Position numbers and translations under genes: made by a program. A DNA stretch of 64,000 nt, taken from assembly GCA_951406725.2 (NCBI GenBank), contig OX597836.1, positions 806,001 to 870,000 on the forward strand, written 5' to 3'. Positions 37,395 through 63,974 of the stretch are shown piece by piece; positions within the stretch are counted from its first letter, which is position 1; each line of letters opens with the position of its first letter. Under the pieces are notes generated by a model that ran no database searches, was not told where the DNA came from, and worked only from the letters and a program-made list of their open reading frames with translations. The DNA is from Octopus vulgaris (Eukaryota).

Positions 37395-37432
<38 letters not shown>

Positions 37433-37668: not shown

Positions 37669-37880
37669 GGCATCTGGCCAAGTGGTTAGGGTGTTACTCT
37701 CACGACCTCAAGGTCATGGTTTCAAATTTCAGACGAGCTGTGCATAGAATGTATTCTTGTGCAAAACACTTCATTTCACATCATTCCAGTCTACTCAGCT
37801 GTAAATGGATAACCCTGCAATGGACTGGCACCCTATCCAGGGGGAATGTTGGCTTGCCTGCCTAGCCAGTGGGGCGGAAT
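37669..37880 (+). mobile_element. tRNA-derived SINE family C
   Basis: A-box tggccaagtgg, B-box-like gtttcaaat, CORE-like actcagctgtaaatgg, then ccctgcaatggactggc..tccagggg. Confidence 0.6.
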
Positions 37881-38497
37881 CATTTGAAAGCTGAAATAAC
37901 ACAAAGCACAGTAACTAGTGATAGGTTTGTCGATACCATGACACCGTGATATATACACATACGTATACACACACACACACACATATAAATACTTGCACAT
38001 ATTTAAAATGGTGATACCTCTCACTCCATACGTTTTGGCTTTGAACCAATGCTACAAATAGTTGTTAGGTTGTGTTGCTATTGTTATTGTTTAACCTGAG
38101 GTCAATCTTGAGCCAACTTATGATCTGGTTCTTACCAGCCATGACCATTCCTTCTTTTCAGGAATCTACAACTATTTTCTTCTTTTTGCTTTTCTTTTCA
38201 AGAAGATACAATATCACCTGAAGTGGTTTTGGCTATTATTTCTAGCTGGATAGGCAATCACATACAGAGTTGTTTTGTTTTAATAACAAGATACTTGTTT
38301 AACTCCAGGCTTGATCGAGTGGACCTGTGATTAAATGAATCATAAATCTGTTTGTATGTCTGTTGAGACATACACACACACCTTTCCAAATGTGTGTGCA
38401 GATATGTGTATGTATTTATGAATTTATATATTTATGAATGCATACTGGCATGTGTGTGTGTCTGTGTATGTACATACATATGTAAGAACCTACTGTG

Positions 38498-39450
38498 GAC
38501 TAGTTTCCGCTACCTAGGTGACCAAGTTAGTAGTGGGGGTGTATGTTCAGAGAGTGTTACCACTAGAATAAGAATAGCCTGGGCAAAGTTTAGAAAGCTT
38601 CTACCCCTACTGGTGACAAAGGGTCTCTCAATCAGAGTGAAAGGTAGATTGTACGATGCATGTGTGCAAACTGCCATGCTTCACGGTAGTGAAACATGGG
38701 CTGTGACTGTGGAGGACATGCGTAGGCTCGAAAGAAATGAAGCTAGCATGATCCACTGGATGTGTAATGTCAGTGTGCACACACCACAGAGTTTAAGCAC
38801 CCTGAGAGAAATGCTGGACATAAGAAGCATAGGATGTGGCATACAAGAGAGACGTTTACGCTGGTATGTTCATGTACTATAGATGGATGAGGAGAGATGT
38901 GTGAAGAAGTGCCACTCCCGAACTGTTGAAGGGATCTGGGGTAGAGGTAGCCCCAGGAAGATATGGGATGAGGTGGTCAAGCATGACCTTCGAACATTGG
39001 GCCTCACAGAGGCAATGACAAAAGACCGAGACCTCTGGAGATATGCTGTGACTGCGAAGACCCAACAAATAACATGAGTTCATGGCTGTTTCCTGCACCA
39101 GCTTCACTTAGTAGCCCCAGCCCATCCAAAGTACCTTGGATCGTAGGATGACCTGCTGTGCTTACTTTGGATCATAGGGCAACCTGCTGTGCTTGAGGAG
39201 ACCTGTTGAGTCAAGTACATCAACAACAAAATAAAAATCAAATAGAAATTGTAGTTATGATACCTGTGCTGGTGGCAAGTAAAATATACCCACTACACTC
39301 ATGGAGTGGTTGGCATTATAAAGGGCATCCAGCTGTAGAAACACTACCAGATCAGACTGGAGCCTGGTGCAGCCTCCTGGCTTCCCAGACCCTGGTCAAA
39401 CCGTCCAACCCATGCTAGCATGGGAAATGGACGTTAAATGATGATGATAA
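38498..39450 (+). mobile_element. RTE LINE 3' fragment with 3' UTR and (TGA)n tail
   Basis: SFRYLGDQVSSGG..RIRIAWAKFRKLLPLL..LHGSETW..RRLRWY..GRGSPRKIWDEVVKHDL. Confidence 0.9.
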
Positions 39451-39465
39451 TATTTATACATATAC

Positions 39466-39506
<41 letters not shown>

Positions 39507-41613
39507 TATATATATATACATATCATCATCATCATATACATATTATATATACATATTATATATATACATATACATATATATACATACATATATATACATA
39601 TATATACATATACATATATATACATACATATATATATATACATATACATATATATACCTACATATACACATATACATACACATATATTTCCATGGTGTTT
39701 AACCCTTGATCAGCCAGGCGTGTCCTTATCTATAATCAAAAGCATTCCAACTATGAACATCCAGCCATTTTGCACATGTAGGATTGTGTTATACAAACAT
39801 TATTCTTTTATAATGCTTGTATGTGATTTAATGGAGATTTAGCTGTTATTTCAAGTGAGTGGAAAACTGTGCTGAAGCTCTCACAATCTTGTCTTCATTT
39901 GTGTTTCCCAAAATATATGCAAGCATCAAGTTTGTTGATGCCAGTTGAGTTATTTCCCAGTGAGGCAGAAGGTGCCTTAGACATTCGATCAGTAGCAACT
40001 GATAAAATAAGAATCAGATTGAAATAAAATACTAGGATCAAGATGATTAACTGAAACTCTTGAAGGTTGTACTCCAGCATGGCCACATTCCAGTGACTGA
40101 ATCTAGTAAAAAACTTAAAAAGTAACAGAATTTCTTTATTGAAGTGTAATGTTTGTTTACATTCTGATTTCAAATCCGTTGGGTGTTGATCCAATTAAAT
40201 ATCAGTCAAGTACTAGGGGTCAGTTTAACTGACCATTCCACTCTCTGTAAATCTCTGGCCTTGTATCAACCCATCACAAAAACTCTTATTGAGGCTGGTG
40301 AGTCAAACAAAATGCCTTGCAGTATTCCTTTTGGGTTTTTACATTCAAATGCAGCCAAGATAAACTTTGCCATTTATCCTTCCAGGGTCCATAAAATAAT
40401 GAGGTGGATGATAGGATCAACTGAGCCTCAATGCCCTAAATTTGCTGACCTTGTGCACAAATCAGAATCAATTATTATTCATTTGGGAGCAGTCAGCAGA
40501 GTCCTGGGATCTGTGGAATTCCTTGACTCACCCTAGTTGGAGATCCACCTAATACAGGTGGATCGTCATCATCATCATCATCATTGCTGTCATCACCACC
40601 ACTTATTTTTATATCCTCTATACCTCTTTTTTGATTTTCATATAAAACCCATCACATTATGTAACATGTCTTTTTAATAATGTACCCCTTATTTGATACC
40701 CATGGGGCCAATAAAAGAATATTTTTAATTACCTTTGTAACTTGCTTCCTCCTCTTTTCCCTTTATTCTCCCTTGCACCTTTACCTCCTCCCTTTCTCTC
40801 CCACTACTTTTCCTTCTCTCTTAAGTTCCCCTCCCCCGTTATCTAAGTATTTTTTTTGTTTTAGTTCCTTTTTTGTTTGGTTTCTATTCCATTTGTTAAT
40901 TAGCTGGAATACTGCCTTGGCATGTGTGTACGCGTATGTATATGTATGAAAGTGCATGTGTATGTATATGCTAATGTGCATGCATATTGATAGTGTGCAC
41001 GTGTGTGTGTGTGTGTGTGCATTCGGTACTATTTGCATGTGTTTGGACATTGTGTTGGCGTATGAATGCAAATATGTAAGTGTATGTATATCTGCAGTGT
41101 CTGTCCGTGTGTGTGTGTGTGTAAACATGTGCATACATGTGTATATATGTGTTATATGCTGTATGTGTATATGACTACATAATTGTGTGTGTGTTTGTTT
41201 GTGTGTGCATTTCCTCTTCACCAGTCAATGTCTCACACTATCTCTCCTGGTGATTAAAAATATTTCAAAAAAGCAATTATTCTTAGTTTGAAAGGCAAAT
41301 GAATCATAAAGCGTCTGTGTTTGTTGAGATACAAACGTATAGAAAGACACACACACACACACACCTTTGCAAGTATGTCTGCAGATACGATGGGTATTTA
41401 TGTATGTTTTAATGTGTGTGCATATGAGTATATATATTAATGTGTGTGTGTGTGTGTGTGTGTGTACGGAGATAGAGAGAGACATGATGTATGCATAATG
41501 TATATTTGTGTCTGCATATCTATTTATATATCCAACTGTGTGTATGTATTGGTGTATATCTCTCTATCTATCTGTGTCTATGTCTCGATCTATATAACTG
41601 TCAATCCTTCTGT

Positions 41614-41644
<31 letters not shown>

Positions 41645-41687
41645 AACATCTATCCTAAAACAGCTGTGTGTTCCTACATTTATTTAA

Positions 41688-41895
41688 ATGTCTGCTAGAA
41701 ATAACCTCTCCTCTTTGCAACCACCGCCACCACCACCACCACCACCACCGCCACCACCACCACCTTCACCAATACTTGTTTCCATTCCAGGTTTTCTTGC
41801 CATTTCACTGTTTGTAGTAATGGTGGTGGTGGTGGTGGTGCTGGTGGTATCTAGCTGTTGGGGATGTGTGGGCATGCTGCTGGGTGATGCAGATG
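41688..41895 (+). CDS. Candidate first coding exon (signal-peptide-like, phase-1 donor)
   Basis: (TC)n..aaacag acceptor at 41663; in-frame TAA then ATG; MSARNNLSSLQ(P)nSPILVSIPGFLAISLFVVMVVVVVVLVVSSCWGCVGMLLGDAD; donor G|GTAAGT. Caveat: the P and V runs are microsatellites. Confidence 0.4.
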
Positions 41896-42111
41896 GTAAG
41901 TAGGACAGTAGGGGGGGGGGGCGGAGAAGGAAGAATGTTTACTTTTTCATCAACTCTTTCACCTGCAAGATGACCTGCCATATATCTTCCTCCACAACTT
42001 AACCTTCCCTCATACCACCACCACCGCATACCAACTCCCCCTCCCATGCACATTTCTTTCTAGCCTCCACTCTCTGTTTTACTGTCTCCTTCTCCTCACC
42101 TCCCTCTCTCT

Positions 42112-42156
<45 letters not shown>

Positions 42157-42859
42157 TACATACAGTGATGAATGTATACATGTGTATGTTTATCCTGTGC
42201 CACCAAATGATTTTCTCTGCAATACCACCGCAAGCATCAACACAACCACCACATGGAAAACTAACAACAGCAAACACACCCACAACATCAAAACATTGGC
42301 TCCCCCACCACAACCCTGTAAAATCCCTCAAAGCAACTCATTATTAAGTCAACACCATTCCATATCATCACCAACACCCCCCACCACATAAACTGGAGCT
42401 GCCTCCACCACCACCATTACATTCACCAATTTTGTGTTTTTTTAGTAATTTTGTGGGCTTGTTTCATATGTGTGTGTGTGTGTGTGTATGAAAAATAAGG
42501 ATGAATACAAATTTATATTAAAGTTCTTACACGTGTTTCACCATTATGGTTATTTGGAACCCTGCAATAGGTGTTGCAAATGCATTACAGATTACAGATG
42601 CTCAACATTATAGATGTAAACCATAACTCTAGCAGTCATGCATCTCGTGGTACACAGAATTTCTACTATATATATATATATATATATATACAGTACAAAG
42701 TGTACTGGAAACTTTATTTATCACAACAATCATTTCAGCATACTTTTCTGCACTGGTCCCTAGTGGGTAGGGAATGATATAATGAAATCAAATCCAGAAG
42801 AAACCTCATTAGGTGATATAATAGACTTTGATATAATAGGTGATATAATAGGCTTTTAT

Positions 42860-42916
<57 letters not shown>

Positions 42917-43194
42917 GTGTGTGTGCATGTGTATTTAATCATATCAAAGGGAAATGGAAATTAATAGAAATTTTCCCTTCCAGTGGCCTAGCATGAATAA
43001 ATTTAGTCCAAAGACTATGTATTAGTCATAAAATACAGTGTACATTTAAACACATAAGGAATCCACTCGTGGGATTCAACACGCTAGAAAGAACAGCTAA
43101 GTTCTATAACCACAAAATTAGGGATAAAATTTGACAGGAACGAAATGAAAAAATAAAAGCATTTTACCATATATAGTATATATATACCATATAT

Positions 43195-43897
43195 ATGGGC
43201 TGTGACTGTTGAAGACATGCATAAGCTTGCAAGGAATGAAGCCAGTATGCTCTGCTGGATGTGTAATGTCAGTGTGCATACATGACAGAGTGTAAGCGCA
43301 CTGAGAGTAAAGTTGAACTTAAGAAGCATCAGATGTGGTGTGCAAGAGAGACAGCTGCGCTGATATAGTCATATGATGCATATGGATGAGGACAGCTCTG
43401 TGAAAAAGTGTCACACCCTAGCTGTTGAAGGAACCTGTGGAAGAGGTAGACCTCGGATGAGGTGGTGAAGCACGACCATTGACCATAGGGCCTCACCGAG
43501 GCAATGACAAGTGATTGAGATCTTTGGAGATAAGCTGGGCTTGAGAAAACCCGGGAAGCCAAATGAGACCATAACCATGGCCTATGCCAGTGCTGTATAA
43601 TCAACGTATTTAAGAGTACCCTTCAATTACTGGACAATAAACTATGCTTGCAAAGATCTGTTGAGGCAAGTGAAATTGCTGTCTTGGCCGCTGCCAGTAC
43701 CGCCTGACTGGCCCTTGCGTTGGTGGCATGTAAAAGCACCCACTACACTCTTGGAGGTGTTGGCATTAGGAAGGGCATCCTGCAGTAGAAACTTTGCCAG
43801 ATCAGATTGGAGACTTGTGCAGCCTTCTGGCTCACCAGCCCTCAGTCAATCCGTCGAACCCATGCCATCATGGAAAGCAGGCATTAAACGATGATGA
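43195..43897 (+). mobile_element. RTE LINE 3' fragment
   Basis: WAVTVEDMHKLARNEASMLCWMCNVSVH.., paralogous to 38697-39450. Confidence 0.88.
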
Positions 43898-43905
43898 TAT
43901 ATATA

Positions 43906-43957
<52 letters not shown>

Positions 43958-44131
43958 CACATGGTTAAGATATGGTTCCATTACATGAACACAGTTTGCA
44001 TACTTCACTATTTTGGTGAATTGACCAACTTCTTGAAGAGTGAAATTATGGAATGAAAGCTAAAAGATGCCTGTTGCATGTGTACACACACACACAGAAA
44101 TGTTTTATATACATAAAAATTGCATACATAT

Positions 44132-44515
44132 AGGTGCAGGAGTGGCTGTGTGGTAAAGGCTTGCTTCCTAACCACATGGTTCCGGGTTCAGTGCCTCTTC
44201 ATGGCACCTTAGGCAAGTTTCTTCTACTATAGCCTTGGGCCAACCATAACCTTGTGAATGGACTTATTAGATGGAAACTGAAAGAAGCCCATTGTATATA
44301 TATATGTGTGTGTGTGTGTGTTTGTCCCCCTACCATCACTTGACAACTGATGCTGGTGTGTTTATGTCCCTGTAGCTTAGTGGCTTGGCAAAAGAGACTG
44401 ATAGAATAAGTACTAGGCTTACAAAGAATAAATCCAGGGGTTAGTTTGTTCAACTAAAGCGGTGCTCCAGCATGACCACAGTTAATATGACAGAAACAAA
44501 CAAAAGAAATAAAGT
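44132..44515 (+). mobile_element. SINE family B (CpG-decayed)
   Basis: Collinear with 14537-14910. Confidence 0.85.
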
Positions 44516-45254
44516 AAATGAATATGTATATGTACCTACACATGGCTGTGTTAGTGTTTAAGAGTTTGTATGCTTGTGTGAGTGTGTGTGTATATATATA
44601 TATATATGTATATATATGTGTCCCTGCTTCTTGTGATGTGTTTATTGATTGCAAACAAAGGTGTCATTATTCATTCAGTGTCCCTTACTTGCAGTCCACC
44701 ACCACAAAACCAGGTCCAGGCTTCTTGTCATGTTCTCTGATATATATATATGTGATTGTAATGATGATGTTGACAATGGAAATGACGATGATGGCGGTTG
44801 TCAGAAAGAGTTTGATGTCAGCTGGAATGAATTAAGTTGCAAGACATGAATTTTGAAGAAAGTTGTTTCTGTTGCTTAATCCAAGGTCAACTTTGATCAA
44901 ATAGTCATTACGAAAAGCATTACATCCACGACCATCCTGTCTTTACAAAATATGCCTGTGATTCCATCATTCTGTGCATTCTGTCTTATTTATAAGGACT
45001 TGAAGTAAAGGAGATTTAGCTGCTATTTCCAGCAGGTTGAGTGACCACTTATAGACTTATCAATTGTTAGGATTGTTTTCAAGTGTAGTGTTGATGCTGA
45101 TATTAATGATGGTAGGTGTTACTGTGATGGTAGTAGTAGTAGTAGTGGTGGTGGTGGTGTAGTATTAGTAATTGTAATGTAAAAGAGATCATGTTTGTGT
45201 ATCAAGCTTATATCAAAATCCTGTCAACTGATAAGAGTCTGAATAAATGGATGG

Positions 45255-45255
<1 letters not shown>

Positions 45256-45335
<80 letters not shown>

Positions 45336-45336
45336 C

Positions 45337-45435
<99 letters not shown>

Positions 45436-45447
45436 CGTGTGTGTGTG
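45256..45447. repeat. About 190-bp (TG)n microsatellite
   Basis: Direct reading. Confidence 0.95.
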
Positions 45448-46259
45448 CAGATTTGCATGTTTTGAGTTTGCAAAGAAGAAAGAGTAGGACTAAATACAGG
45501 AGTGTAATGTTTATTGCAGGGCTGACGTTACTCCCTGTTTTTAACTCAGAGTTTCTCGTGTGTGTCCCTGGTTTCATAAATGGTGAGCGTTTTGTGTGTG
45601 ACTTTGTATTGATAACAGAAACGAATAAAATGTCAGCCATTGGACAGAAATGGAGTCAAATGAAAAAAAAAAAAAAATAAAGGAGAATAAAATCAAAATA
45701 AAATAATGAATGTATATATAAAGTAAACAGTGTGTGTGTATATACATACATAGGTATGTATATACATGTTGAGTCAATAGCGCAAAAAGAAAATAGAAAG
45801 ATTGATACCATCTGCCAATATGAGATGCACACATGTCTACGAAGACACACACACGGTTACAGACGCACACATTTACTCTCTCTCTCTCTCTCTCTCACAC
45901 GCACACACACACACACACAGTTATAGATGCGCACACATACATGTCGTTACAACATATATGTATATAAGCACACACACACACACATATGCATGTATATATG
46001 TACAGAAGTATAGTGGGATCTTTCTGTCCATCTTTTAGAAAAGATCCATATAGTGTTCTAAATATGACAATTTTAAGTGTAAACTCAGTATATTCATAAA
46101 GTGTGTGTGTACGCATATATATGTGTGTATGTACATACCTGTTTATATGTACATGCTGATTATATATACACACACACACACATATATCCGTACATATACA
46201 TACATGCATATATGTACATGCTTATATATAAACATACATGCAAAAACATACTTATGCAT

Positions 46260-46298
<39 letters not shown>

Positions 46299-46339
46299 TG
46301 TGTGTGTGTATATATGTAAACATATATACATGTATATAT

Positions 46340-46388
<49 letters not shown>

Positions 46389-47598
46389 CACATACATAAA
46401 TACATACATAGACAGACACATACACACACATGTACGTGTGTTTGTGTGTGTGTTTCAAATATAAGCACAAACTATTGCCGTTCATGGCCGAGTGCAATCA
46501 ATCACAAATATCGAACAGTAATTCGCGTGAGCCACACGCCATCGTTTTATTGACCCCAGGAAGGCGGAAAGTCGAAATCTATCTACGTGGAATATGAATT
46601 TAGAATGATGTAGAGAGATGTAACTAAATACCATTTTTTCTGTTTATTTACTGTTTTCAGGCAGCTTGAAGAAGGGCACAAACAACATCAACAACGAAAA
46701 TGACAAAGATTTAGAAATACAAGATGACTCGACACCACATTGTGGAAAGTGCTGCATCAATTGTATTGAATAATGATAATAAATAAATAAATAAACGACG
46801 ATGATGATGATGATGATAATGATAAAATCAACAACAGCAATAATTATGATGAACAAGAAGTTAAGAGCTGTTTTCATTGTGTTGCCGTGTCATTTTCTTA
46901 CCGCGTTTTTCATGGTGACATTTTCTTTAAGAATGTTAAATGTCACCGAAACTACTAAGAAATGGTAAAAGGAAAAAAAAAAGAAGGAAACGGAACAGCA
47001 ATAACAAACCAACAAAAACAAAACAAAAAGAAACGATAACATAAAAGATTTCGAAATCAGATAAAAAAAAAAAAAAAAGAACACGAATAATAAAACTTCC
47101 CCTCTTCCTCTTCTTTATTTCATCCAGATTTTACCAATATTAAAAAGAAGTGAAATTGAATCATTCTTTTAGATTCTTTTATATTTTGTACTTGAAGAAT
47201 TCAATGAATTCGTTTAAAGTTTAAAATTTCTCCTTAGAATTGAATGTAGCACTTGTTACCTTATTTAGTATTTAGTTTGATATGTCGGAGAGAAAAGAAT
47301 GAATAATGTGTTTGTGTGTGTATCTATATACACGTGTGTGCATATTTGTGTACGTGTGTGTATAGGTTTTTAAAGTATTTTTGTGTATTGTGTCTGGGGA
47401 GCGTCAATGTACAGAGCCACACAAAGAATGTTGCAAACCAGATACAAAAAAGATGCTTTTGTGATACAAGCGTGTATGACTGTTCGGTATTGACTGACAC
47501 GGGAAGAGAGGCTTTAAAGAAAATGCTGTTTCCACGTGTATATTTGTGTGTCCCGACTTCATTTTTTTTCGCTTTCTGCTTGCCTTCTGTGACCGCAG

Positions 47599-47654
47599 AA
47601 CAAAGATTATATTTCAACGCCAGTCGGTCACCGATGCTTTTTCGTTATGGATAA
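47599..47654 (+). CDS. Candidate terminal coding exon (E)QRLYFNASRSPMLFRYG*
   Basis: Strong acceptor ttttttttcgctttctgcttgccttctgtgaccgcag at 47598; phase 1 matches donor at 41895; ends Gly-stop. Confidence 0.3.
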
Positions 47655-48304
47655 CAAGATTGACCTTGAAGCTGCATTGCAGATGACAATTTTGTTAAAC
47701 GGGTTAATTTCTAACAGGCAGTATGAAGTGGGTCTTTGCTTTAAAGTGGAACTCGCTCTTATGATCCAAATCTCCATTTTCCGAAACTGTGAGCCACATG
47801 AAAGAACTCAATATGCTACGATGACGATTGAATAGTAAAGATTGTTGTGAATCAAATTCCAGTTGCTCTGTGTATGACGCACGCGCACACGCACACACAC
47901 ACACACAAACGTGCGTGAGTGTATCAGCATTTATAGGTATTTGTATCTTTGTATGTTCATTTATATCTATACGAAACGCGCGCACGCACACCCTGTAAGT
48001 AACATAAATAATACAAGGCTGTTTGGAATTTGAGAAGTATATGCTCCGTGTGTGTGTGTGCGTGTGTGTGTGTGTGTGCGTGTGTGCGCGTGTGTGTGTG
48101 TGTGTGTGTGGTGTTTATATCTCCTGAGGATAAACAGCAGAAGTTAACTTGCCCAAGGGTTAAACATTTTCCACTCCTATTTCTTTTAAGAATACATGTT
48201 CTGGGATTATGTTTAGTATCACAAGTTATTTCATAGCATCATCATATTACTTGGTGAGTGTGTGTGTGTGTATATATATATATTCACACACGCGCACGCG
48301 CACG

Positions 48305-48359
<55 letters not shown>

Positions 48360-48709
48360 GTGCTGTATCATCCGACTAGCCAGAGTTATTTTTACCGGCC
48401 ACCTCCGTCTGGAGATTGCCTTGGGCATGAAACTTGCAATTTCATGTAACAGAAGATTTAAAATGGCGACAAATGATAAGTAAATAAATAATATTGCTCT
48501 ATGTTAGGGATAAGTTTTTGTATGTAATTATTAGCTGCAAATACACCATCAATATATTCCACACGCACACACGTATGAATATGGGTATCGACATATTTAA
48601 GCATTTAATAAATACATATATAAATGAGTATGTATGTATGTATGTATGTATGTATGTATACGTACTCACTCACATGCATACACATACACACACATAATAA
48701 ATGTACATA

Positions 48710-48760
<51 letters not shown>

Positions 48761-49424
48761 GGGGAGAGATTAGGATGACGGGTATGAATTTCTTATAAAT
48801 GGTATTAAGACATAACCACCAGCAACCTGAGAGAGGAATAACAGCCGGCCCCTGGCGGGACTCAAAACGGTAACAATATGACTTCTGTTGTGTGGTTTTC
48901 ACTCGCTTGTCCGGCGACTATATTATAGATGAGACTACAGATTGTCTGCACTTTTCCCTGTCAAAATCCGGCAATGTGTGTCGTTGACAAGTGTGTGACA
49001 TTACAAATGTAAAATTATGCAATGCGGGAAATAAATATCAAGTGGAATAAAATACAAAAATCTTGGAAATGAATTCAATGTAACTCAAAATGTAAAACAA
49101 ACAAATGTTTTACACAGCAAACATTACAGTCTGGCTTTTGTACTTTAACCAATGAATTTTAAATATAGAAAGCGAATGAATATAATCTTAAAATACTCTA
49201 CTTTCAATTTTTATATTCCTTTCATACTCAAAGTGGGACAGGATTTTTTCGTTGTTTTTCTTTTGTGACATACAAACATTTATAGTTTTTCTTGAACTAG
49301 AGTTGCTTTTTTGTTTATTTTTAATTTTCTTATACGTAGTGGAAGGAGGATCTGACGGGAATGTATGTAATGTGGTCAGAATCTAGACTCGACTCTTACA
49401 TTCTCCAAACCCGTTGCCTTTAGA

Positions 49425-49581
49425 CAAGTCATAGACAACCTGCGGGTTGCATGTGGTTCCCAGGAGTTTCTGAATAGCACGACTAACAAAAAACTACCTT
49501 CACTCGTTTTAACAGAGCGGCCCATCAGATGATGAGCCATGTCTGATGGGGCCGCTTCTCGAAAAAGGTTTCCCATACTTG
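49425..49581. mobile_element. hAT/Charlie-like MITE relic with GC-rich internal hairpin
   Basis: Ends caagtcatagacaacct / rc caagtatgggaaacct; hairpin agcggcccatcaga/tctgatggggccgct 49516-49556. Confidence 0.5.
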
Positions 49582-50293
49582 CCTTAGCCTAATGTATCCG
49601 ATTTGCCTGTTCTCCAGTTCGAACAACAACATGTAAATTGGTGGTGGTTTTAGGAAAACTGATTGAAAGGAATCAGTCAGTAACCAAACAGCAGGTGAGA
49701 TAATCGATGAATTGTGTCAGCAAAACTTATTTTGGGCAGTTCAGAAGTTTGCCACAAGTTCTTGCTCAGAAGGGATATGAATATCCTGGCGTTTCCAAAT
49801 ATATGAACTCGTTTACGAAATTCACTATAAAAATTCTTGGTAAAATCCAAAATCCAAGGAAACGAGTGGTGATCTCTGTCAAATTCATGAGGTTGTATTG
49901 GTGTGGGATGGAAAGGAAACTGATGTTCCTGCAAGACGTTTCTCTTGTTTGTAATTTAACAGTTTTTGAATTCTTTACTTAATAACAAAGGATCTTTTAC
50001 AAAGCCATTAATTTATCGATCAAACAACCTCGTCTTTTTCTTTTTTACAAGGAAAAGTAATTCTATTCAAAATCAACACAAAAAGCCGCGTCTCGGCTTT
50101 GTCGATTCATTTATGGGGAACTGTGAAGGACTGAGGTTGTTTTTAAATTCTAGCACTGGACATTATGTAATGTAGCATGGAAAAACATAGAACAATGCTG
50201 CAAACTTGATCCGTTTTTTAGTGTTACCCTGTGCAAAGTGCCCAAAATATCAATAATAATAAGAACACACACACACACACACACATACACTCA

Positions 50294-50340
<47 letters not shown>

Positions 50341-50397
50341 TCTCTCTCTCTCTCTCTTTCTCATATACATAATAACTGCTCACGAAACAGAAATCTT

Positions 50398-50460
50398 ACC
50401 TTCCGCCAAATAGGAAACATTTAAAACTCCAACTTACCTGGAAAATAAGAGAAAAATTTA
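50398..50460 (-). other. Candidate recursive splice site plus cryptic RS-exon
   Basis: Minus strand tttttctcttattttcCAG|GTAAGT (50438/50437); downstream donor AAG|GTAAGA at 50400/50399 gives a 38-nt exon. Confidence 0.55.
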
Positions 50461-50462
50461 TG

Positions 50463-50496
<34 letters not shown>

Positions 50497-50852
50497 GGGG
50501 GTCTTTCTTACATCAAAAGCAATTGGAAGACATGCACAAAAATATCCAAAGCTAACTAACAATGCTCTGTGAGACTCTCCTGATATTTATGAGGTATTGA
50601 TATTCTCTGGAACGTGCCATTGATCATCTTCAGGGGTAATCTGTTAATGTCTTTACACACACGCTTGTGTATCGTTCCAGCGGTGCCATGTACTCTTACA
50701 ATGATGGACATATTCTTCCATTGCCATAGTATATTCTATTTCTAATTGAACAGTTAACTCGAGTGTTTTTCAGGTCACCTTTACACAGCAATATGGTCAT
50801 TAAGGTTTGAGTTAAAGAAACCATCACCATCATCGTCGTCTTCATCACGATT

Positions 50853-51061
50853 GCGAACTGGCAGAATCGTTAGCAAGCCGGAAAAAAAAAATACTTAGCT
50901 GCATTTTATAAGTCTTTATGTTCTGGGTTCAAATTCCGCTGAGGTCGACTCTGCCTTTCATCTTTTTGGGGTCGATAAAATAAATAGATGCGCACTGGGA
51001 TCGGTCTTATCGATTTATCCACTCTTTCGAAATTGCTGGCCTTGTGCCAAAATTTGAAACC

Positions 51062-51062
<1 letters not shown>
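50853..51062 (+). mobile_element. SINE family A (CpG-retaining), followed by a decayed inverted copy at ~51208-51360
   Basis: ctggcagaatcgttagc..gggttcaaattccgctgaggtcgac..ccttgtgccaaaatttgaaacc then (att)n. Confidence 0.85.
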
Positions 51063-51111
<49 letters not shown>

Positions 51112-52069
51112 GGCGTGTCATCATATTTTCCTTCCCTTTTACTGAGTTCGTGAATACCAGTCATTGACCGGATAACGATTTTATTGATTGTATTGTAATA
51201 AAAATAACCTTGGCACAAGGTCACGAATTTTGAACGGAAAAGATGTAATGAGTTGAATGAAGACCGCATTTGGTTGATGCTGTTTTATTGGCCGAGTGGG
51301 GGGGGGTGCGAACGGCAGAGTCAACAAATCTCGTTGCGGGATTTGAACTCAGAACATAAAGCAACGAAAGAGAGCATTACAACAATGATAATAAATCTAG
51401 ATTTAATAGGATCAGCTTCCCAAATAAAACCAAAGAAAGGAAATAAACAGGTAAAAGGAGAAAAAAGAAAACAGCAAATAAATACTAAAAAAAAAGGCTA
51501 AATAAAGGAAAGCAATAACTAAGTATGGCCACCATTTCTGGTTGATTTGAGATTTGGATGGATGTGTATTGATCGGAAGAAAGGGGGGAAAATGAAACAA
51601 AATGATTCAATAAAAGTAAAAAAGGAAAGTCGATATTAATAGGGAATTTAAGTTTTTATTCATGTTTTCTTCATTTCTTTTCTCTTAATATTTTTTTTTC
51701 TATTCGTTTCCTCAATTTCCCTCGTTGAAGGCAATCAGAGAAAATTTAAAGCATACGCCATTCAATGCTAGTGTGGTGGTTGGTGGTCGAAGGAGAAAAG
51801 GGACAGATTTGGGGAAGGAGAGGATTGATTTATTTACTTATTTTTGTATTAGGAAAGTATTTTTATTTTTTGAAGTTAATTTTCATGTTTTTTTTTATTT
51901 CATTTATTTCGTTTTGGGAATATTCTAATTAAAACGGTAATTGTGTAAAACCCGTAAGTTAGTCGAAACTATAAAACCTTATTTAATCTTGTTATTATTG
52001 CAGTCATTGCTAGTCTCGCAATTGTTGTTGTTGTTGTTGTTGCTGTTATTATTATTATCATCATTATTA

Positions 52070-52780
52070 AGTCGGCGGCGAGCTTTGTAGAATCGTCAGC
52101 GCATCAGTGAAAATGCTTAGCGGCACTTTTTCTGGTTCTTCACGTTATGAGTTCAAATTCTGCCCCGGTCGACTTGGGCTTTTATCGGTTCATGGTCAAT
52201 AAAATAAGTAACAATGTAATCGGACTAATCCCTTCCCGCTAAAATTGCTGACCTTGCGCCTAAATTGAAACAATTTTTAAAAAGTGTTGATAAGCTGCTT
52301 AAATCGTTAGCATGCCGGACAAAATGCTTTGTGGAATTTCATCCGTGTCTATGTTCCGTTGAGATCGACTTTCATTCTTTCGGAAGAATTGTTTCAAGTT
52401 TAGGCTTAAGACCGGACATTTTAAGGGAATGAGATAGTCGATCGGAATGACCCATCACCTAACTGATATTTTATTGTATCGGCCCTGAAAGGATGAGAGG
52501 TAAAGTTGACCTCAGCGGGAATTGAACTCGAAGGCACTTTTTTCAGACTCTCTAATGATTCAGCTCGCCACCATGATGATTATAACGTTTTCAAATTTTG
52601 CCACAAGGGCAGCCATTTTGTGGGAGGGGATAAGTCGATTACCTCGACCCCAGTGTTTCACTGGTACTTAATTTATCGAATTAAGTCGACCTCGGTGGAA
52701 TTTGAACTCAGAACGTAACGACGGGCGAAATACCGCTAAACATTCCGTCCAGCGGGCTAACGATTCTGCCAGCTCACCGT
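52070..52780. mobile_element. Cluster of four SINE A copies (+,+,-,-)
   Basis: ~52070-52270(+), 52290-52383(+, partial), 52390-52570(-), 52587-52780(-). Confidence 0.75.
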
Positions 52781-52783
52781 AGC

Positions 52784-52840
<57 letters not shown>

Positions 52841-54195
52841 TTATTTTATTGGTTACGGGGACCCAAGTCATTGAAGAGTGCATAAAAAGGTGACGCGTTC
52901 ATCGATCAAAATGGGGAAATAATAATAAAAATTAATAATAATAATGATAATAATAATAATCACGATCATAATTTCTAACATAGACATGGTTATAGCTTCC
53001 AGATCAGCGTTGATCTAAGGCATTCCAGCTGTGACCATCCAATTCGTTTATTTATTTGCACGTACGCGGGCGTGTGTGTGTGTGTTGTAACAGCGAACCC
53101 TAATTTATCGAAAGTGTTTCCCTTTATTTTGTCCTTTTAAAAGAGCAAAGGGTAGATTTGAGGGGTATTTGGGTGCTGTTACTCCTCTCAAGTCTAAAAT
53201 TCCTCGTTTGGCACGCAGTTGTTGTTGTTGTAACTAATGTTATTGTTCGTTAACTGATTTAATAATAATAATAATGATAATAATAACAACAACAACAACA
53301 ATCGTTTCTGAAATGATGAGACTGACGCACTGCCGACTGCGCTGGCGATAGCAACAACAGAAATTCTTTTCATTCCGATAATTGGAAGCGTTATTCTGTG
53401 GGGATTACTGACGTATGGAGTCTATTTCGTGTAAATGGAGTTTGCATGACACAGAACGATAGCTGAATGAAAGACTGGAGATGGAATGATGGAGATTAAG
53501 GGGAAAGAGGAACAAAGGAGGAGAAAGAAGCAGACGACTGCGACGAGGATGAAGATGTTAGTAGGGGGGAGGGCGGAGGGAGGAGGAGAGAATGGAACTG
53601 AGGATGAGGAGAGGGAGAAAAACTGATTGAAAGATATGGAAGAAGAGAAGAAGAAGTGAAAGTGAAAGTCAATGGATGTGACGGAGGAGGTGAGCAGGGT
53701 GAAGGAAAAGCTGAATGAAAGATATGGAGGGAAGGAAAAAGGAAGGAAAAAGGAAGGAAGGAAGAAAACCGTAGTTTATAGTATTTGGAGGAGAGAAGAA
53801 AGTAGCGGCTGAGGAGAGGAGGAAATCAAGAATATAAATGAAAGAGAATGGAGACGTGGTGGGGGGGGGGTGAGAGGGGGGTGGAGACGAGGAAAGAAGA
53901 ACGAAGAATACAAAAGAAGAAGAACAATAGGAATTACACAACGAAGAAGGAAATTAGAAAAACGGGAAAACGAAGGGCTGAAAGGAAAGAAAAGGAACAA
54001 ATAATTATGTGTTGTTTAACCCCAGGTCAGGTTTGATGGAACAGATCTAGGATTAAAGAAATCCCACTTGCAATCATCTCCGCACCACCTTTGTATATTG
54101 TCCAGGTTTATCCTTCCTTTTTTACTTTCTTTTAAACAGTATAGTGTGTGATTTGAGGGGGATTTGACTCCTATTTCAAAACATTTCCTTTTCTA

Positions 54196-54603
54196 GGCGC
54201 AGGCGTGACATGGGCGTCGATTCGTCTCTCCGTGGTTTGCTTCCGAATCAATGGTGACTGGGTCAGTCTCGCTGCGTGGCACTTGGGGCAAAGGCAAGTG
54301 TCTTCTCCGGTGGCACCCGCCGACTAAAGACTGTGGGTGGATTTGATTGACGGAGACTGAAAGAAGCCCGCTTTGTGTATGTATATATGTGTGTGTGCGT
54401 CTTTGTGTTTGTCTCTCACCACTGTTTGACAACCTGTGTTGGTTTGTTTAACCCCCCTCCCTATAACTTATCCTTTCGGGAAAAGACCGATAAATACGAG
54501 GCTTTTAAAAAGATAATGAGAATTGATTTGTTCGACTAAACCTTTTCAAGCCAGTGCCCCAGCATGGCCGCAGACCATTGACTGAAACGAGTAAAACATA
54601 AAA
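54196..54603 (+). mobile_element. SINE family B (CpG-retaining)
   Basis: ggcgcaggcgtg..actgaaagaagcccg..gtgccccagcatggccgcag. Confidence 0.8.
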
Positions 54604-55411
54604 GAATATCGCTCAGAGGAAGAAGAGCATCGTTGGTTTTTGTTGTTGTTTTTGTTATTCGGGATCCCTAGAATTGGGGGGAAGAAGGGAGATAATTCTT
54701 CTCAGACTGGAGATGCGACCCAAATGTTCGCAAAAAGACACTTGAAGGTCAGGGATGGGGAGTTAAACCGGTCGATGCTTAGATCATAATTTAAGTTGAT
54801 CGAAGGTTATTTCAATTCATATTATACACGAGAGACTATTTGCATTGAGTTGACAGAACGCAACCCTGTGCCATTTTCTCTTGGCCACATTGTGTATATA
54901 ATGTGCACCACTGCATCTATCATCGTTGATGGTGAAGTGAAAGGACAAACGTGAGGATCGAGGAGTCAAACTTCAAACACTGTACAGTATTTGTACGACA
55001 GAATAAAAAGAAGGGCAATTTATGCTACCATTCTTTTATCTATTTATTTACCCATATTTGTCATTATCCTTCGTTCCTAAAATCGGTCACACACGCAAGC
55101 ACACACACACGCAAGCACACACACACACGTATTAATAAAAAAGGTAGACCCTCTTCTTCATTCTAGTCCCTTTCACACTTCTCGCCTCTCGCTTCACTTC
55201 CAGCACTTGACATATATCTTCACATTCTTTCATATTCACTGAGTTCAAAGAAACGACCATGCCATCGGTCCATCCATTGTATGCCTATCGTCAGGCATGA
55301 CTGTGTGGTTCCAGTTTCAATCCCACTACCTGGCACTTTGCTCAAATACCGTTTACATGTACTGCGACAGTCAGACACCACCGCACAACAAGGCGGGGAT
55401 CTTTTCCCTTT

Positions 55412-55730
55412 CAATGGCAGATCGAGAAATTAAGTTTTTGTAACTAAACACTTCGGACACTGGTAGAATGTGTCATATAAAACATCTTTTCCTCTTAGTG
55501 TTGTTGAGAAAAGTTTATATTTTCAAAGTTATTTCATGTTAAAGTTGTCGTATTTCGGTCATTTCAACCAATCAATGACGTGTATTTAGCTGAATAAAAT
55601 TACTGCCGTTGTTTGTCAACAACAACTTCCGGCGGTGTATATTTCGTTTGTCACTGTTATTTATGACATCGTTCGAGCGTTTGTGCTGGTTTTAGCTTTA
55701 AGGTTTTAGGGTTAGGGTTAGATGGGAAAC
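55412..55730. repeat. Unclassified repeat-like segment ending in telomere-type TTAGGG units
   Basis: ttagggttagggttag 55706-55721; lies between SINE B head-like (~55300) and tail (55760-55820) fragments. Confidence 0.4.
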
Positions 55731-55830
55731 GTGAAGAAAGGAAACACACAGAAATATGATCGACTAAAAAACCTTCAAAGCAGTGCCCCAGCATGGCCGC
55801 ACTCATAGCTGAAACCTGCAAAATGATTGT

Positions 55831-55864
<34 letters not shown>

Positions 55865-56202
55865 TGTGTGTGTGTGTGAGAGAGGGGGGATGGAGAACGA
55901 AAAGTAGTCCCAACTGGTTCTGACGGTGAATGTGCCACAAAACGGATATCTGGGACAGATGAAAATAAAGGGGTGGAAGGTAAGGGTGTTGTAGTAAAAC
56001 TTATCCGACCCACCCTCCCCTCTGTAGAATGGAGGGTGCGGGATGTTAGTGTCAGTTTGGAATCTTTGAGGTTAACAGGTGCTATGGTAACACAGGCGCC
56101 TACTCAGAACACACACACACATACACACACGAACACACACACACACATGCACTTCAACATATTTATGAAAAAAGCAGCCCACACAAAGCCACCTGAAAAC
56201 CA

Positions 56203-56238
<36 letters not shown>

Positions 56239-56924
56239 CCCTCACTTTCTACATTTTCTCTGTAGATTTCATCTGGCCTAATAACTGCGAATGCGTATAC
56301 ATGTATTCTATGCATGCATTCATGTATGTATAAGTTGGTGCGCGCGCGCACACACACATATTTTTTCTCTCGCAGCATTTTCCTATCGACCTCGTTGGAC
56401 GGTGTTGGAATATTCTCTGCAGAATAACCAATGTCTTCACGTTCCATTTTATCCGAGAGTTCGTGGCAATCGTGAATTTGTAGAAGCGCGAAGCATTGGT
56501 GCAGCTTTCAAACATAAACCACGTAAGACACTCTGTGTCCGGGTCGCGGATGGATCGTCAATGTATCAGACATCCAGAAAAGAAGCACACTCGAAAGTAT
56601 ACCGTTGACAGAACATACTAAAAGCCTAGAATCTCTCCGTAGACAGGTGGGTATTGTTTCTCTGGCGAAAGTCTAACAACACTGAGAAACTAGTCAAATT
56701 GATTCCTTTCTTTTTGCTGTTGATGGAAAGATAAACTTCAAACTTCGTTATTTATTCTATTTCACTCAATTCCTTCTTTCCTGTAATATATGGGGGTATT
56801 CTACATGTACTAGATTCCATATTTGTGAAATTCTTCTGATTGTGTGCACAGATTTGAGGTGAGTAAATATATAAAACCTACAGCTTGGAAGAGGTTGCCC
56901 AGGCCGGCCTTGGATGGTCATTTC

Positions 56925-57510
56925 ATTAGCTGCAAATAAGTTTATTTTCCAACCACATGACTGCGGGTTTGGTCTCACTGCGGGACTCCTTGGACATGTG
57001 GCTTCTACAATAGTTCTGGGCCACCCAAAGCCTTGTGAGTGGATTTAGTGGATGAAAATTGAAAGAAGCTCGTCGTGTGCGTGTATTAATGTGTGTGTGT
57101 GTGTGGAATAATTATAAACAAGGCAGATTTTAGCCATTTCTCCACATACTGGAAAAAATTATGAACAACCTGAATCGATTTTCGAACCTTTTTGGGTTCT
57201 CGTCTGAGGCGTCTACACCATTCTGACAGCCTCCTGAGAAACAAATGCAACAGTTACTCTATGAAGGAGTCACTAACTTGCATATATCTATGGGTGTGTC
57301 ATTTTGTCTATGTTATCCAGATCCAGCTCTATCACCACTTGACAACCGGTGTTGGTGTTTTTACGTCTCCACAACTTAGCGGTTTGTCAAAAGACAGCGA
57401 TAAAATACGAGGCTTAAAAAATAAGTTCTGGGGTCGATTTGTTCGAATAAAATCCTTGCAGGCAGTGCTCCAGCATGGCCGCAGTCATTGGACTGAAGTA
57501 AGTAAGAGAA
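56925..57510 (+). mobile_element. SINE family B split by ~230 bp of unrelated sequence
   Basis: 5' half 56925-57100, 3' half 57330-57510. Confidence 0.7.
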
Positions 57511-59225
57511 ACTATGTGTGTGTGCAAAAGAAACTCATTATGCAACGCAAGACTTTAATGGAAGTCCTCGGTTGAAAGACATGAAAAATGAAGCAGAAAA
57601 CTATAAACACTAAAAATGGGTGCTATATGATCCTTCATTATGTGTACGTTTCTATTTGCTTTTTTTTTCTCTACCAATATTACACACACACACACATACG
57701 TTTATATATAAATATGTAAAGATTTTGTTTTCGGAAAGATCGTGCTTGGCGACTGAATGAATAAAATTTACGACAAGTATTCTTTGTATGCAACATTCTG
57801 AGAAAAAAATGGATCTCGCATAGTTCCTTGAAATTGGAAACCAGTATTTGTTGCATTTCGGTTGACCGTTTTACTAATTATACCAAACACACTTTGACAT
57901 CTTCGATCAAATTACAAGGGTTTTACTGCTATGAACAAACATTATTACCGCATTACATATTTCAAGAAGATCACAGATTCCATGGAGACCATATACACAT
58001 ATATAAGAGGCACATTTTTTAAAGAAATTACGAAGAGTACGTTTGTGCCTAGTATAAACCACTACAGGCGAATACTTCCCTCCTCTCCACTCTGGACATA
58101 ATTTCAGCAGTGTAAACACTTTGTTTACTTTTCACAGCCAAGTTAAATTGTGCGATTCTTAAAAGAAAGAATTGCTGCATTCAATCGATGTGTTTTCAAA
58201 TAAATATCCAGAGATCATTCATTGAACGCATGAACGAACAGCATTCATCCAAATATAACTGTCCCCCCCCACACACACACACGAAGTTGAAAGATTTTTT
58301 TTAAACAACTGTTTAGAATAGGGTAGAGATTAATTGTCAGGATGAAACATATAGGTAACCATTACCACTCAGAACAGAATATTTACTTGACAATACCTTT
58401 ATTTGTATTTTCTACCAGATAATGCTTCACCCCAGTGTAAAACACGCAAGCACGCATAAAACGAGCTCCTGCATTTTACCTGTATTCAATAGCACTAACG
58501 AGGGGGGACTGGCAACTAACGTGACTGCAAACCTCTAAGCTACGCATTTATGCCCTCGCCGAGTTAAAAAAATATGGCTAAAATTTAATCGCGGGTTAGT
58601 GAATTAAGAATTATTAACCAGTGAATATAGGTCTACGAAGATACCTGGATTCAACTCGCACCAAGTTCTCGTGTCTTTATTCCACATTGCAAATAATCTT
58701 CCGATCTGCAGACGTTGATCTGGAACGTAAGTATATGTTCGGCTTTCAATCTCTCGCTTAACCTCCAAATATGTGTCAACATAATGTAACAAAGCATTTC
58801 CCCTGAAGACCTGTTGTAGATCTTCATCTAATTACAATACAAACACCCGCTGCAGAGAATGCAAATAGCTGCAATGGTGTAAAGTGCATTGGCAACAAAT
58901 AGTACAGATTTGCGTTTATCATACATAATCCTCACTGTGTCTTTCTCGGTCTGTCTCTCTCTCAGATATATATATATGTGCGTGTGTGTGTGTGTGTGTA
59001 GGCAAGCATACATGCGTGCGTGTATAGTATGCCTGATGCAAGAGAAATAACAAAGTTCCTAGAACGTTGCCTACTCTTATTTGTGTAAACATTAATTTTG
59101 AAAACACGCAGAGACTCGTTGAAGCTCGTCCAAAATGGAAGCGATTACCAACGTTTCAAAGTGAATCGTTAGAAATTCTTCCCATACGAAATCATTGATA
59201 GGATTGTTAATCTGAGAGAGAGGGA

Positions 59226-59257
<32 letters not shown>

Positions 59258-59274
59258 TATCACATAACCGCTCA

Positions 59275-59428
59275 TGCGCTTATGTGATAAAAAGTTTGCG
59301 CCTCAACCACATGGTTCCGGGTTCATTTCCACTGCATAGTACCTTAGGCAAATGCTTTTTACTATAGTCTTGGACCGACCAAAATCTTGTGAGTAGATTT
59401 GTCAAACAGAAACTGAAAGAAACCCATC

Positions 59429-59495
<67 letters not shown>

Positions 59496-59620
59496 AACCC
59501 CGCTTGACAATCGGTGTTAGAGTGCTTATGTCCTTGTAACTTTGTGGTTCGGCAAAAGAGACCGATAGAATAAGTACCAGGCTTTAAAAAGAAGTACAAG
59601 AATCGATTCATTCGACTAAA
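59275..59620 (+). mobile_element. SINE family B, 3'-truncated
   Basis: aaccacatggttccgggttca..gaaactgaaagaa..gagaccgatagaataagtacc. Confidence 0.8.
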
Positions 59621-59643
59621 ATTGCTCAAGCTGCAAATATTAG

Positions 59644-59788
59644 AGGAGTTACTCAAGTGCTTTGAGTTTCGTCCCAAACCACTTATCAAACACTTATCGA
59701 TTAAGCACTGATGAAACTTTGGTAAGTGCCAAAAACCATTTAGGGATAAGTGCTTTGGAACGAAGTTTTGGGTCCACGAGTCACTCCT
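59644..59788. mobile_element. MITE-like element with ~43-bp imperfect TIRs
   Basis: ggagttactc..ttcgtcccaaaccacttatc vs rc ggagtgactc..ttcgttccaaagcacttatc. Confidence 0.55.
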
Positions 59789-60051
59789 TTGGGTATTATT
59801 TACGAATAAAATATTATGCGCGCGTGTATATGTGTGCGCGCACTTGTGTAAGTCAGTATATTGCGTGTGCGAGTATGAGTGGTTATAAGAGTGTAACCGT
59901 GTTGTGTGTGTGTCTGAAAGAGAGAGGGGGGAGGGGGGATAGAGAGAGTATGTATGTATGAACCTGTTGATATTACACACTCATTGATAATATATTCATA
60001 CTCTCTCTCTCTCCAAACATACAAAATCTGAGGGATTGTGACTGGAGACAT

Positions 60052-60083
<32 letters not shown>

Positions 60084-60314
60084 TTATGTGTGTGAGAGAT
60101 TGAACCAGCGACAGTGACGAGAGAAAGATATATATTCGTAGGAACCGGGGGAAACTTCGAAAAGCAGAAGAGAGACAAACGGAAATGATGACATATACAT
60201 CGAAAAAGATTTGTAAATAAAATTACATGTGTGAGGAGGATGAAGCAGAGATGGAGAGATAGAGAATGAAGGAGAAACAGAAGCACCCGAGCGCACAGAA
60301 AGGGACCAGAAGAA

Positions 60315-60370
<56 letters not shown>

Positions 60371-60944
60371 GTGAATGAGATCCATCTTCTCTTTTATGCG
60401 ATGTGCCATTGATGTGGAGAGAAGAAAGCAAGTGTGATTTAATGAGTAACTAATCGCCAGTTCTGAAGGGTTTGTTGTGAAAGTAAATAGTAAACAGGTG
60501 TGTAGAGAAATGGTGTGTATAATAAATGCTGATTTCATATACGTATGTCTGTGCACACACACACACATAGATATATATATAGAGAAAGAGATTTGCACAC
60601 ACACACACATACACGAATGTGTGAGGAGGGTAGTGGTATGAGGAGTCGATTTGTGTGGGTGAGTGTTTTTGTGAGTGCACAGTGAATATATATTTATGTG
60701 TGTGTTTGATACATAAGTCTGTGTGTATATGTAAACTAGTTTTTGTGTGTGTAGGAATGTGTGTGAGCGAGTTACAGTGGGGTGTGTACAACGAGTCTGA
60801 GTAAATATGCTGCGAATGACTTGTTGAGATTTTAAATTGGGTTCTATATATTTATTGCTGACACTATACATACATATGTCATATGTGCGTGGATGGACAC
60901 ACACATATGCTGATACATACAAGCATATGTGTGTGAGCGCGTGT

Positions 60945-60983
<39 letters not shown>

Positions 60984-61767
60984 TATATACATATATACAT
61001 ATACATGTACATATACATGTATACATATATACATACATATATACATACATATATACATACATATATACATATATACATACATATATATATATATATACAT
61101 ACACACACACACACACATATGTGCGTGTACATATACACACGAAATCAATCGTTTGAATAATCGGTGACGTGAAACTCCTAGTAACAATTCTCTTAAGCCG
61201 ATGATGATGGTTTTTTTTTTTTACCCTGGCGCAATGTCATGCATTTCTGGCGGAATGGTGGTGGCGTTTGGTTGATAAAATTGTTCTCAGTAATTGACTC
61301 GGAATGAAATTATTGCATCGATCCCAAAAGGATGCAACATGAAAGTGGAGCTGGAAGGGAGCGGGATTTTAACCCAAAACATGAAACAACGAAATGAAAA
61401 TATCGTAAAGATATTTGTGTCCAACATTTCCAAGTTCTTTCTTTTGAAAAACAGAAAACAAACCATCAAAACTTGCCGACATCAAGTTCCGTATCAAGGG
61501 ATTACCATTTGCACAGAATTAATTAAATTATTAATTGTGGCAGAATAAATAGTTTTTTTAAAAAATTTTATGACCGTGCATTTACGCATTCAACAGGATT
61601 ATCTATGGAACAAAATCAACGACATAATCCACATTTTTTAAAATAATGGTAGCAATGTTATGAAGATCTAACAGTTTACGCATCAAAATATAAATAAGAT
61701 GTAGGAGACACGAATCCATGGGTCTTCCTGGCTGGGGTTTTTCTTTCCTATATTCCTTATTTTATAA

Positions 61768-61955
61768 GGTGGGGAGCTGGGCAGAATTGTTTGCACGCCG
61801 GGCAAAATGTTTAGCGACATTTCGCTCATGTTTATGTTCTGAGTTCAAATGCCGCCTAGGTCGTCTTTGCTTTTCATCCTTTTGCAGTCGACAAAAATAA
61901 GTACCAGTTGAGTACTGGGGTCGATGCCATCGACTTACTCCCCCATCCCTGTGCC
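61768..61955 (+). mobile_element. SINE family A
   Basis: gagctgggcagaattg..ttctgagttcaaatgccg..aagtaccagttgagtactggggtcgat. Confidence 0.8.
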
Positions 61956-62228
61956 CAATATTTTTCTTTGCTACATTAACTAGGCCCACGTAACTTGGGC
62001 CTATTGGATTTGCTTGTCATTATTAACAATTCTGGCGATAAACAACAACAACAGCGATCTAACTTTTAAAAAGGCAAATAGGGAGCCTCCACGTGGTTAG
62101 AAATAGATGCCAAATCTCACTCAAATCGCACCCAAATGTTAGATTAAAAGATGCGATGGTCGCGGTTGAAACGTCTTTGAGCCGAGGTCTGCTGGATCTA
62201 GGTTCACTTTCAGATAGACAACATCAAT

Positions 62229-62307
62229 GCAACAACAACAAGCTTACAACCACTAGCAACAACAACAACAAGCTTACAACCACTAGCAACAACAACAACA
62301 ACAAGCT
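62229..62307. repeat. 27-30 bp tandem repeat (gcaacaacaacaagcttacaaccacta), about 2.5 copies
   Basis: Direct reading. Confidence 0.85.
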
Positions 62308-62455
62308 ATCACTTTCCTATTTCGGCAGACCAGTTAATATCGAGTTGAAACCGGAAGACGAATAATCTGAGGGGTTGGTTGTGGCGGTGGGCGACAATAA
62401 ATAAATAAAAGTCTGCTGAAAAGAAATGCTATAAAGAGACAGACAGACTGACAGG

Positions 62456-62515
<60 letters not shown>

Positions 62516-63905: not shown

Positions 63906-63974
<69 letters not shown>

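Follow-up and report, generated by a model that had tools for sequence, protein, structure and literature searches.

A likely recursive splice site at RP2, second in a series of five, in the giant first coding intron of couch potato in octopus

The window (the whole 64,000-nt stretch analysed here; positions 1..64000 = C23:806001-870000) lies entirely within a giant intron of 308,031 nt on the minus strand (C23:971251-663221), which separates constitutive coding exons one and two of its gene in phase 0. To judge from sequence matches, the host is the couch potato (cpo/RBPMS/MEC-8) gene of octopus, because the peptide of exon 1 has 100% identity to its couch potato counterparts in Octopus sinensis and O. 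bimaculoides and the VRTLF exon is matched in PDB to MEC-8, RBPMS and RBPMS2 (E about 1e-10 to 1e-9). Against Pfam, single cpo exons reach an RRM_1 score slightly below the cut-off. Coding exon 1 runs from the start codon to ...TPEEE (C23:971359-971252, minus strand) and ends at the donor GAG/GTAAGT, and an exon scan placed the RRM exon VRTLFVSG...RAYK at C23:663220-663143 and a further cpo exon, PVGFVTF...DLQ, at C23:629593-629531, both on the same strand. The sequence examined around the window comprised 200 kb on each side and 200 kb further downstream. No cpo exon was found within the window, where the list of ORFs shows repeats and retroelement-like fragments. For instance, the frames at 8751-10507 are retroelement-like (reverse-transcriptase-like and endonuclease-like by eye) and include a segment of about 160 aa on both strands (8751-9419 minus, 10004-10507 plus), which is an inverted duplication. 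Another duplicated segment is found at 30972-31444 and 32330-32786, about 1.35 kb apart, with near-identical translations. In the alignment of cpo homologues (columns 91-126), the exon after RAYK occurs in two versions (GYEGSLLKVT... and GYQNALLKVM...), and some isoforms contain both or neither; the two versions are apparently duplicated and mutually exclusive, and they are common to octopods and mussels. A literature search found no link between RBPMS and recursive splicing.

The site under study, RP2, is located at 50398..50460 on the minus strand. Its pyrimidine tract and CAG acceptor span 50438..50460, with TT at -6/-5, pyrimidines at 16 of 20 tract positions (read from 50460 to 50438) and no upstream AG. 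A (TAA)n run abuts the 5' side of the tract and offers candidate branch-point-like TAAT words at -35 to -26. The acceptor is followed directly by GTAAGTT, the putative regenerated donor, which starts at 50437 and opens a frame-shifting 38-nt cryptic RS-exon (50400..50437 = C23:856437-856400); this exon is closed by a downstream donor, AAG/GTAAGA, at 50394..50399 with its GT at 50399-50398. The earlier note had described this arrangement (tract-CAG/GTAAGT, then AAG/GTAAGA 38 nt on), and re-reading of the sequence confirmed it. As that note also stated, YAGGTAAGT has only two matches in the window, both on the minus strand and 48,644 nt apart: RP2 and 1796-1788, the latter within RP3 (1739..1816, C23:807793), whose tract and CAG/GTAAGTT have their first donor base at 1793 and whose 49-nt cryptic exon ends at the donor TAG/GTAAAT. 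Both cryptic exons in the window, of 38 and 49 nt, are indeed not multiples of three, and the frame shift expected on inclusion of the 38-nt exon holds, with the host intron sitting in coding sequence between EEE and VRTLF in phase 0. The bare 9-mer is not significant in the window, where the two observed matches are to be set against a shuffle mean of 1.07 and 28 of 100 shuffles reach two.

RP2 and RP3 belong to a series of five sites on the minus strand of the intron. The other members are RP1 (C23:896085, 45-nt cryptic exon with an in-frame stop), RP4 (C23:767841, 43-nt cryptic exon) and RP5 (C23:717002, 42-nt cryptic exon with an open frame), so that two of the three cryptic exons outside the window (RP1 and RP5) are multiples of three. 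RP2 lies at C23:856437, and the successive distances from RP1 to RP5 are 39.6, 48.6, 40.0 and 50.8 kb. The tract-CAG/GTAAGTT motif occurs five times in the sense direction of the 308,031-nt intron and never in the antisense direction, and it is absent from both strands of the 355,970 nt scanned outside the intron. With the tract included, only 0.066 strong sites would be expected from 319 acceptor-like sites; the Poisson P of about 1e-8 is to be read in light of a strong-site threshold that was picked after the sites had been seen, and in this form the earlier claim that two matches with complete context are worth attention proved significant.

All five sites carry TT at -6/-5, and all five have an AG/GTA donor within 30-65 nt downstream (at 38-49 nt), compared with 10 of 247 antisense acceptor-like sites and 8 of the 314 other sense ones. 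At 4/5 sites, inclusion of the cryptic exon would cause a frameshift or introduce a stop codon. According to BLAST, the flanks of RP1-RP5 are unique, and matches between sites consist of the motif itself and simple repeats only; since this is also how the RP2 flanks align with the other sites, the motif is not borne by a repeat. Genome-wide, a compound pattern has 17 matches, five of them in the cpo intron and five others sharing repeat-like sequence; this pattern was built from the five sites themselves, so the count of 5/17 is descriptive. Between exon 1 and RP1 the sole candidate for a sixth site was a weak CAG/GTAATT at C23:963350, rejected for want of a cryptic donor, and no strong site was found in the 257 kb examined downstream of the VRTLF exon.

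To search for splice junctions, contigs of four sequencing runs (X1, X2, X6 and X13) were collected at the exon 1 donor and their loose ends were mapped. These runs contain RNA, because spliced contigs from exon 1 to a microexon are present in them. One contig of X1 (437 nt, depth 7.6) contains exon 1 and the shared GTAAGT and then continues exactly at RP1+7; its 30 visible loose letters match RP1+7 to +36 and none of the other places among 41 loci compared. One contig of X6 (269 nt, depth 4.5) has the same structure, except that its continuation is exactly at RP4+7. The two joins skip 75 kb and 203 kb, respectively, and the junction evidence thus amounts to one contig per site, with both runs from a single study. 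The loose parts measure 401 letters (X1) and 239 letters (X6) and far exceed the cryptic exons of 45 and 43 nt, which, judged by length with 30 letters visible, would fit a continuation into unspliced downstream intron, the expected intermediate of recursive splicing. Such a junction reports acceptor use at RP1 and RP4 and says nothing on re-use of the donor. The ratchet points have AGGTAAGT in common with exon 1, an 8-nt microhomology at the junctions. Reverse transcriptase can switch templates at microhomology of this kind. The assembled contigs have flat depth, and X6 also contains an unspliced exon 1-intron contig at depth 5.4, contig depths being rough.

Among the loose ends listed for the exon 1 donor contigs, none of the four runs shows a join to RP2, RP3 or RP5; contigs drop rare forms, so these missing joins are no evidence of absence. 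At RP2 itself the contigs of the runs are dominated by dispersed repeats, and 50345-50503 is masked as repeat.

Two real microexons are expressed from the same intron, both in frame and on the minus strand: microexon A (C23:740826-740794, 33 nt), found in all four runs, and microexon B (C23:694396-694358, 39 nt), found in run X1. Both are present in protein models of O. sinensis, O. bimaculoides and Argonauta and absent from the mussel models retrieved. The loose ends listed for the four runs include no direct junction from exon 1 to VRTLF, and their spliced forms reach microexon A or B; octopus protein models without A or B do exist (P0018, P0021 and P0067). None of the five cryptic exons appears in 20 cpo proteins of Octopus sinensis and O. 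bimaculoides, a set in which a frame-shifting exon would be invisible anyway. Microexon A starts with CAG/TTAAGT, one base off the ratchet-point motif, has a similar short-exon layout and lies halfway along the stretch from RP4 to RP5. An exonised ratchet point is one possible origin for it. The idea that it is a recently broken ratchet point was weakened by its L start in Argonauta too and by gastropods with L-initial inserts of 10-11 aa at the same junction, and the microexon may be older.

Taken together, RP2 is very probably a zero-nucleotide recursive splice site, namely a ratchet point, and the second of five. The ratchet-point-like reading put forward earlier is supported by the five-site sense-strand series in one giant intron and by exon 1 junction contigs at two sister sites, and from these we infer that the acceptor of RP2 itself is used. 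Poison exons are frequent in splicing-factor genes, and the sites might instead be ordinary poison cassette exons of 38-49 nt with low inclusion, which would serve NMD autoregulation of a splicing-factor gene without any re-splicing. In favour of this, a complete acceptor with a further donor downstream is present at every site, four of the five exons would shift the reading frame or introduce a stop, and the host gene has other microexons in the same intron. However, a poison exon is not required to start with GTAAGTT, yet all five do so, and the junction contigs appear, from their length, too long for a splice from the cryptic donor to the main path; we therefore consider this explanation quite unlikely. 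The two readings are not exclusive, since donor competition in flies allows poison exons and recursive splicing to coexist, as the available part of PMC8605326 describes, and poison-exon inclusion could be a minor parallel fate of the recursive sites.

Still less probable, in our judgement, is that the sites serve as acceptors for last exons of a cryptic or alternative kind, which would bring about premature termination in a long neuronal intron and leave the GTAAGT start without re-use. The junction contigs, which show exon 1 and the acceptor only and run on for more than 200 nt, would suit such exons, and cryptic last exons prefer long introns of neuronal genes (PMC7997972, available part). 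But this leaves unexplained the perfect donor at 5/5 acceptors, the second donor at 38-49 nt and the even spacing; no AATAAA or ATTAAA lies within 700 nt after RP2, RP4 or RP5, and no poly(A) signal was found close to where the two junction contigs are inferred to end, the first one after RP1 being at +614 and the contig end at about +407. The least credible alternative holds that RP1 and RP4 function and RP2 is unused, or that the junction contigs are template-switch artefacts with motifs arisen by chance or by repeat spread, to which the unseen RP2 junction, the microhomology and the repeat copies or duplicates among the genome-wide motif matches lend some colour, but RP2 has the same anatomy as its sisters, fills the regular spacing (a gap of 88 kb would be left without it) and has flanks that are not homologous to other sites, and the junction depths, rough as they are (7.6 and 4.5 vs 5.4 for the unspliced contig in X6), are high for an artefact.

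If RP2 is a ratchet point as we propose, the five sites would let the spliceosome remove the first coding intron, of 230-308 kb, during transcription in pieces of 40-75 kb. In the first step exon 1 would be spliced to the AG of a ratchet point, for which there are contigs at RP1 and RP4 and which is presumed for RP2. The AAG/GTAAGA donor of RP2 would then allow the site to be recognised as a cryptic exon of 38 nt, as its anatomy and the fly model suggest. Joining would then regenerate a consensus donor, GAG/GTAAGTT, which would beat the downstream donor, so that the 38 nt would be lost with the next intron piece and the mRNA would keep nothing of them. The pieces would measure 75, 40, 49 and 40 kb, followed by stretches of 27, 24, 23 and 31 kb that lead in turn to microexon A, RP5, microexon B and the RRM exon; that is, after RP4 the path would run through real microexons of 33 nt and 39 nt with RP5 between them, and then reach the RRM exon. 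The first piece, with 75 kb, is larger than the largest fly piece of 63.6 kb in the accessible portion of the source. Failure of the last step would leave a frame-shifting exon ahead of the first RRM.

For the 2.80-Gb genome as a whole, the motif was found 28 times, versus 3 times for the reversed motif, and the controls gave 8 matches with a non-T base at +2 and 38 with the three other bases (non-G) at +5. A second downstream donor accompanies 13 of 59 motif matches outside the cpo intron, compared with 8/70 in the local background (p=0.15) and with 1/16 among genome controls (p=0.28), the latter representing 20 of 46 control matches, less 4 of the 20 with weak-donor-like starts. The motif excess was rejected as evidence of recursive splicing throughout the genome, with no significant excess of cryptic donors and with some matches being repeat copies or duplicates; it could stem from ordinary donors that follow pyrimidine-rich exon ends. 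Since the cryptic-donor excess is not significant elsewhere, the mechanism has no demonstrated genome-wide counterpart and the cpo intron is an outlier by the strict motif, three of whose 56 matches fall in this intron, about 0.01% of the genome, with the reservation that the strict motif would miss weaker sites elsewhere. Two other groups of matches were observed. Three same-strand matches (C18:15812667, 15916311 and 15938489) lie in duplicated segments of 80-84% identity and, going by this identity, are a tandem gene or exon duplication. On the plus strand, two strong sites (C22:13129066 and 13167654) are 38.6 kb apart, each with TTG/GTAAGA 36-38 nt downstream; they are locally alike (67% over 115 nt), and 200 kb contain no other such site. 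A search for their host gene found none, and they may represent another ratchet-point pair or else an element that was duplicated.

The position of the octopus intron can be compared with that in flies. In the available part of PMC5012703, exon 5 is the first coding exon of fly cpo, and the exon 6 primer given there reverse-complements to E-V-R-T-L-F codons in our own reading; because the primer spells these codons, a fly splice junction lies beside the same position. Fly cpo also has upstream non-coding exons, so that its recursive intron may be this one or another, and neither a cpo identifier in the supplements of Pai et al. nor 'cpo' in those of PMC8605326 was found in the parts examined. 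Inserts at exactly EEE/VRTLF occur in many homologues. Two proteins of a second, cephalopod-like cluster (P0036 and P0037) share the same 13-aa insert, which starts with VS and ends with Q, and seven of 110 further proteins, all from arthropods (P0107, P0131, P0134, P0136, P0139, P0156 and P0169), have inserts of 10-20 aa starting with VS, VR, VC or VN. These V-initial inserts may be retained RS-exons or, equally, read-through of exon 1 to an alternative donor, two origins that protein data cannot separate. We suggest only tentatively, and regard as rather doubtful, that recursive splicing of the EEE/VRTLF intron is ancestral to protostomes and has been kept by flies and octopus in the same intron of this splicing-regulator gene since their divergence, despite the rarity of such arrays in the remainder of the octopus genome. 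If it were so, the V-initial inserts of the cephalopod-like cluster and the seven arthropods would be RS-exons sometimes kept, and the intron would be a switch of long standing between ratchet points and microexons.

Recursive splicing has been described in flies and vertebrates (PMC8605326, available part), and our search of the open-access literature found no report of it in molluscs or cephalopods. The cpo locus offers intermediates with RNA support from a third major lineage of animals, with five exact sites, and it makes testable why recursive splicing acts on some long introns and spares others. The array is concentrated in a single gene with a recursively spliced fly orthologue, which suggests the gene, not intron length alone, as the cause. 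Use of the same intron in fly and octopus, if confirmed, would mean very deep conservation or repeated recruitment.

Among known systems, the cryptic last exons repressed by SFPQ, as the available part of PMC7997972 presents them, resemble the octopus sites as unannotated acceptors in long introns that are joined to an upstream exon, but RP2 has no poly(A) signal after it and has both a regenerated and an internal donor. Vertebrate recursive sites (Sibley et al. 2015, as cited in PMC8605326 and PMC5126111) are likewise few, lie in very long introns and use exon definition through an RS-exon. In mammals nine fully suppressed sites are mentioned in PMC8605326, whereas octopus has five in one intron.

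The best counterparts are the ratchet points of Drosophila (Ubx, kuz, Bx, luna, cpo), described here from the available parts of Duff et al. (10.1101/006163) and PMC8605326. The differences are of host and scale: octopus is a mollusc, its intron has 308 kb compared with a fly maximum of 133 kb, and its pieces of 40-75 kb contrast with a fly mean of 18 kb and maximum of 63.6 kb (10.1101/006163). The octopus array looks exceptional in its genome, whereas most fly introns above 40 kb have ratchet points (PMC6110457). All three lariats of the two-ratchet-point intron were seen in fly cpo (10.1101/006163), while the octopus case is built on anatomy and junction contigs. As in Ubx, ratchet points and microexons are mixed in one intron, with the difference that octopus microexons A and B start without GT, unlike mI and mII of Ubx. 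The likeness extends to AG/GTAAGT in a very long intron, a strong tract that has TT at -6/-5 (true of 196 of 197 fly ratchet points; 10.1101/006163), a short out-of-frame cryptic exon (about 50 nt in flies; PMC8605326), exon-to-ratchet-point junctions, and several sites per intron, as in luna with five ratchet points in 108 kb (10.1101/006163). Finally, the host belongs to the same gene family, with two ratchet points in fly cpo and five in that of octopus.
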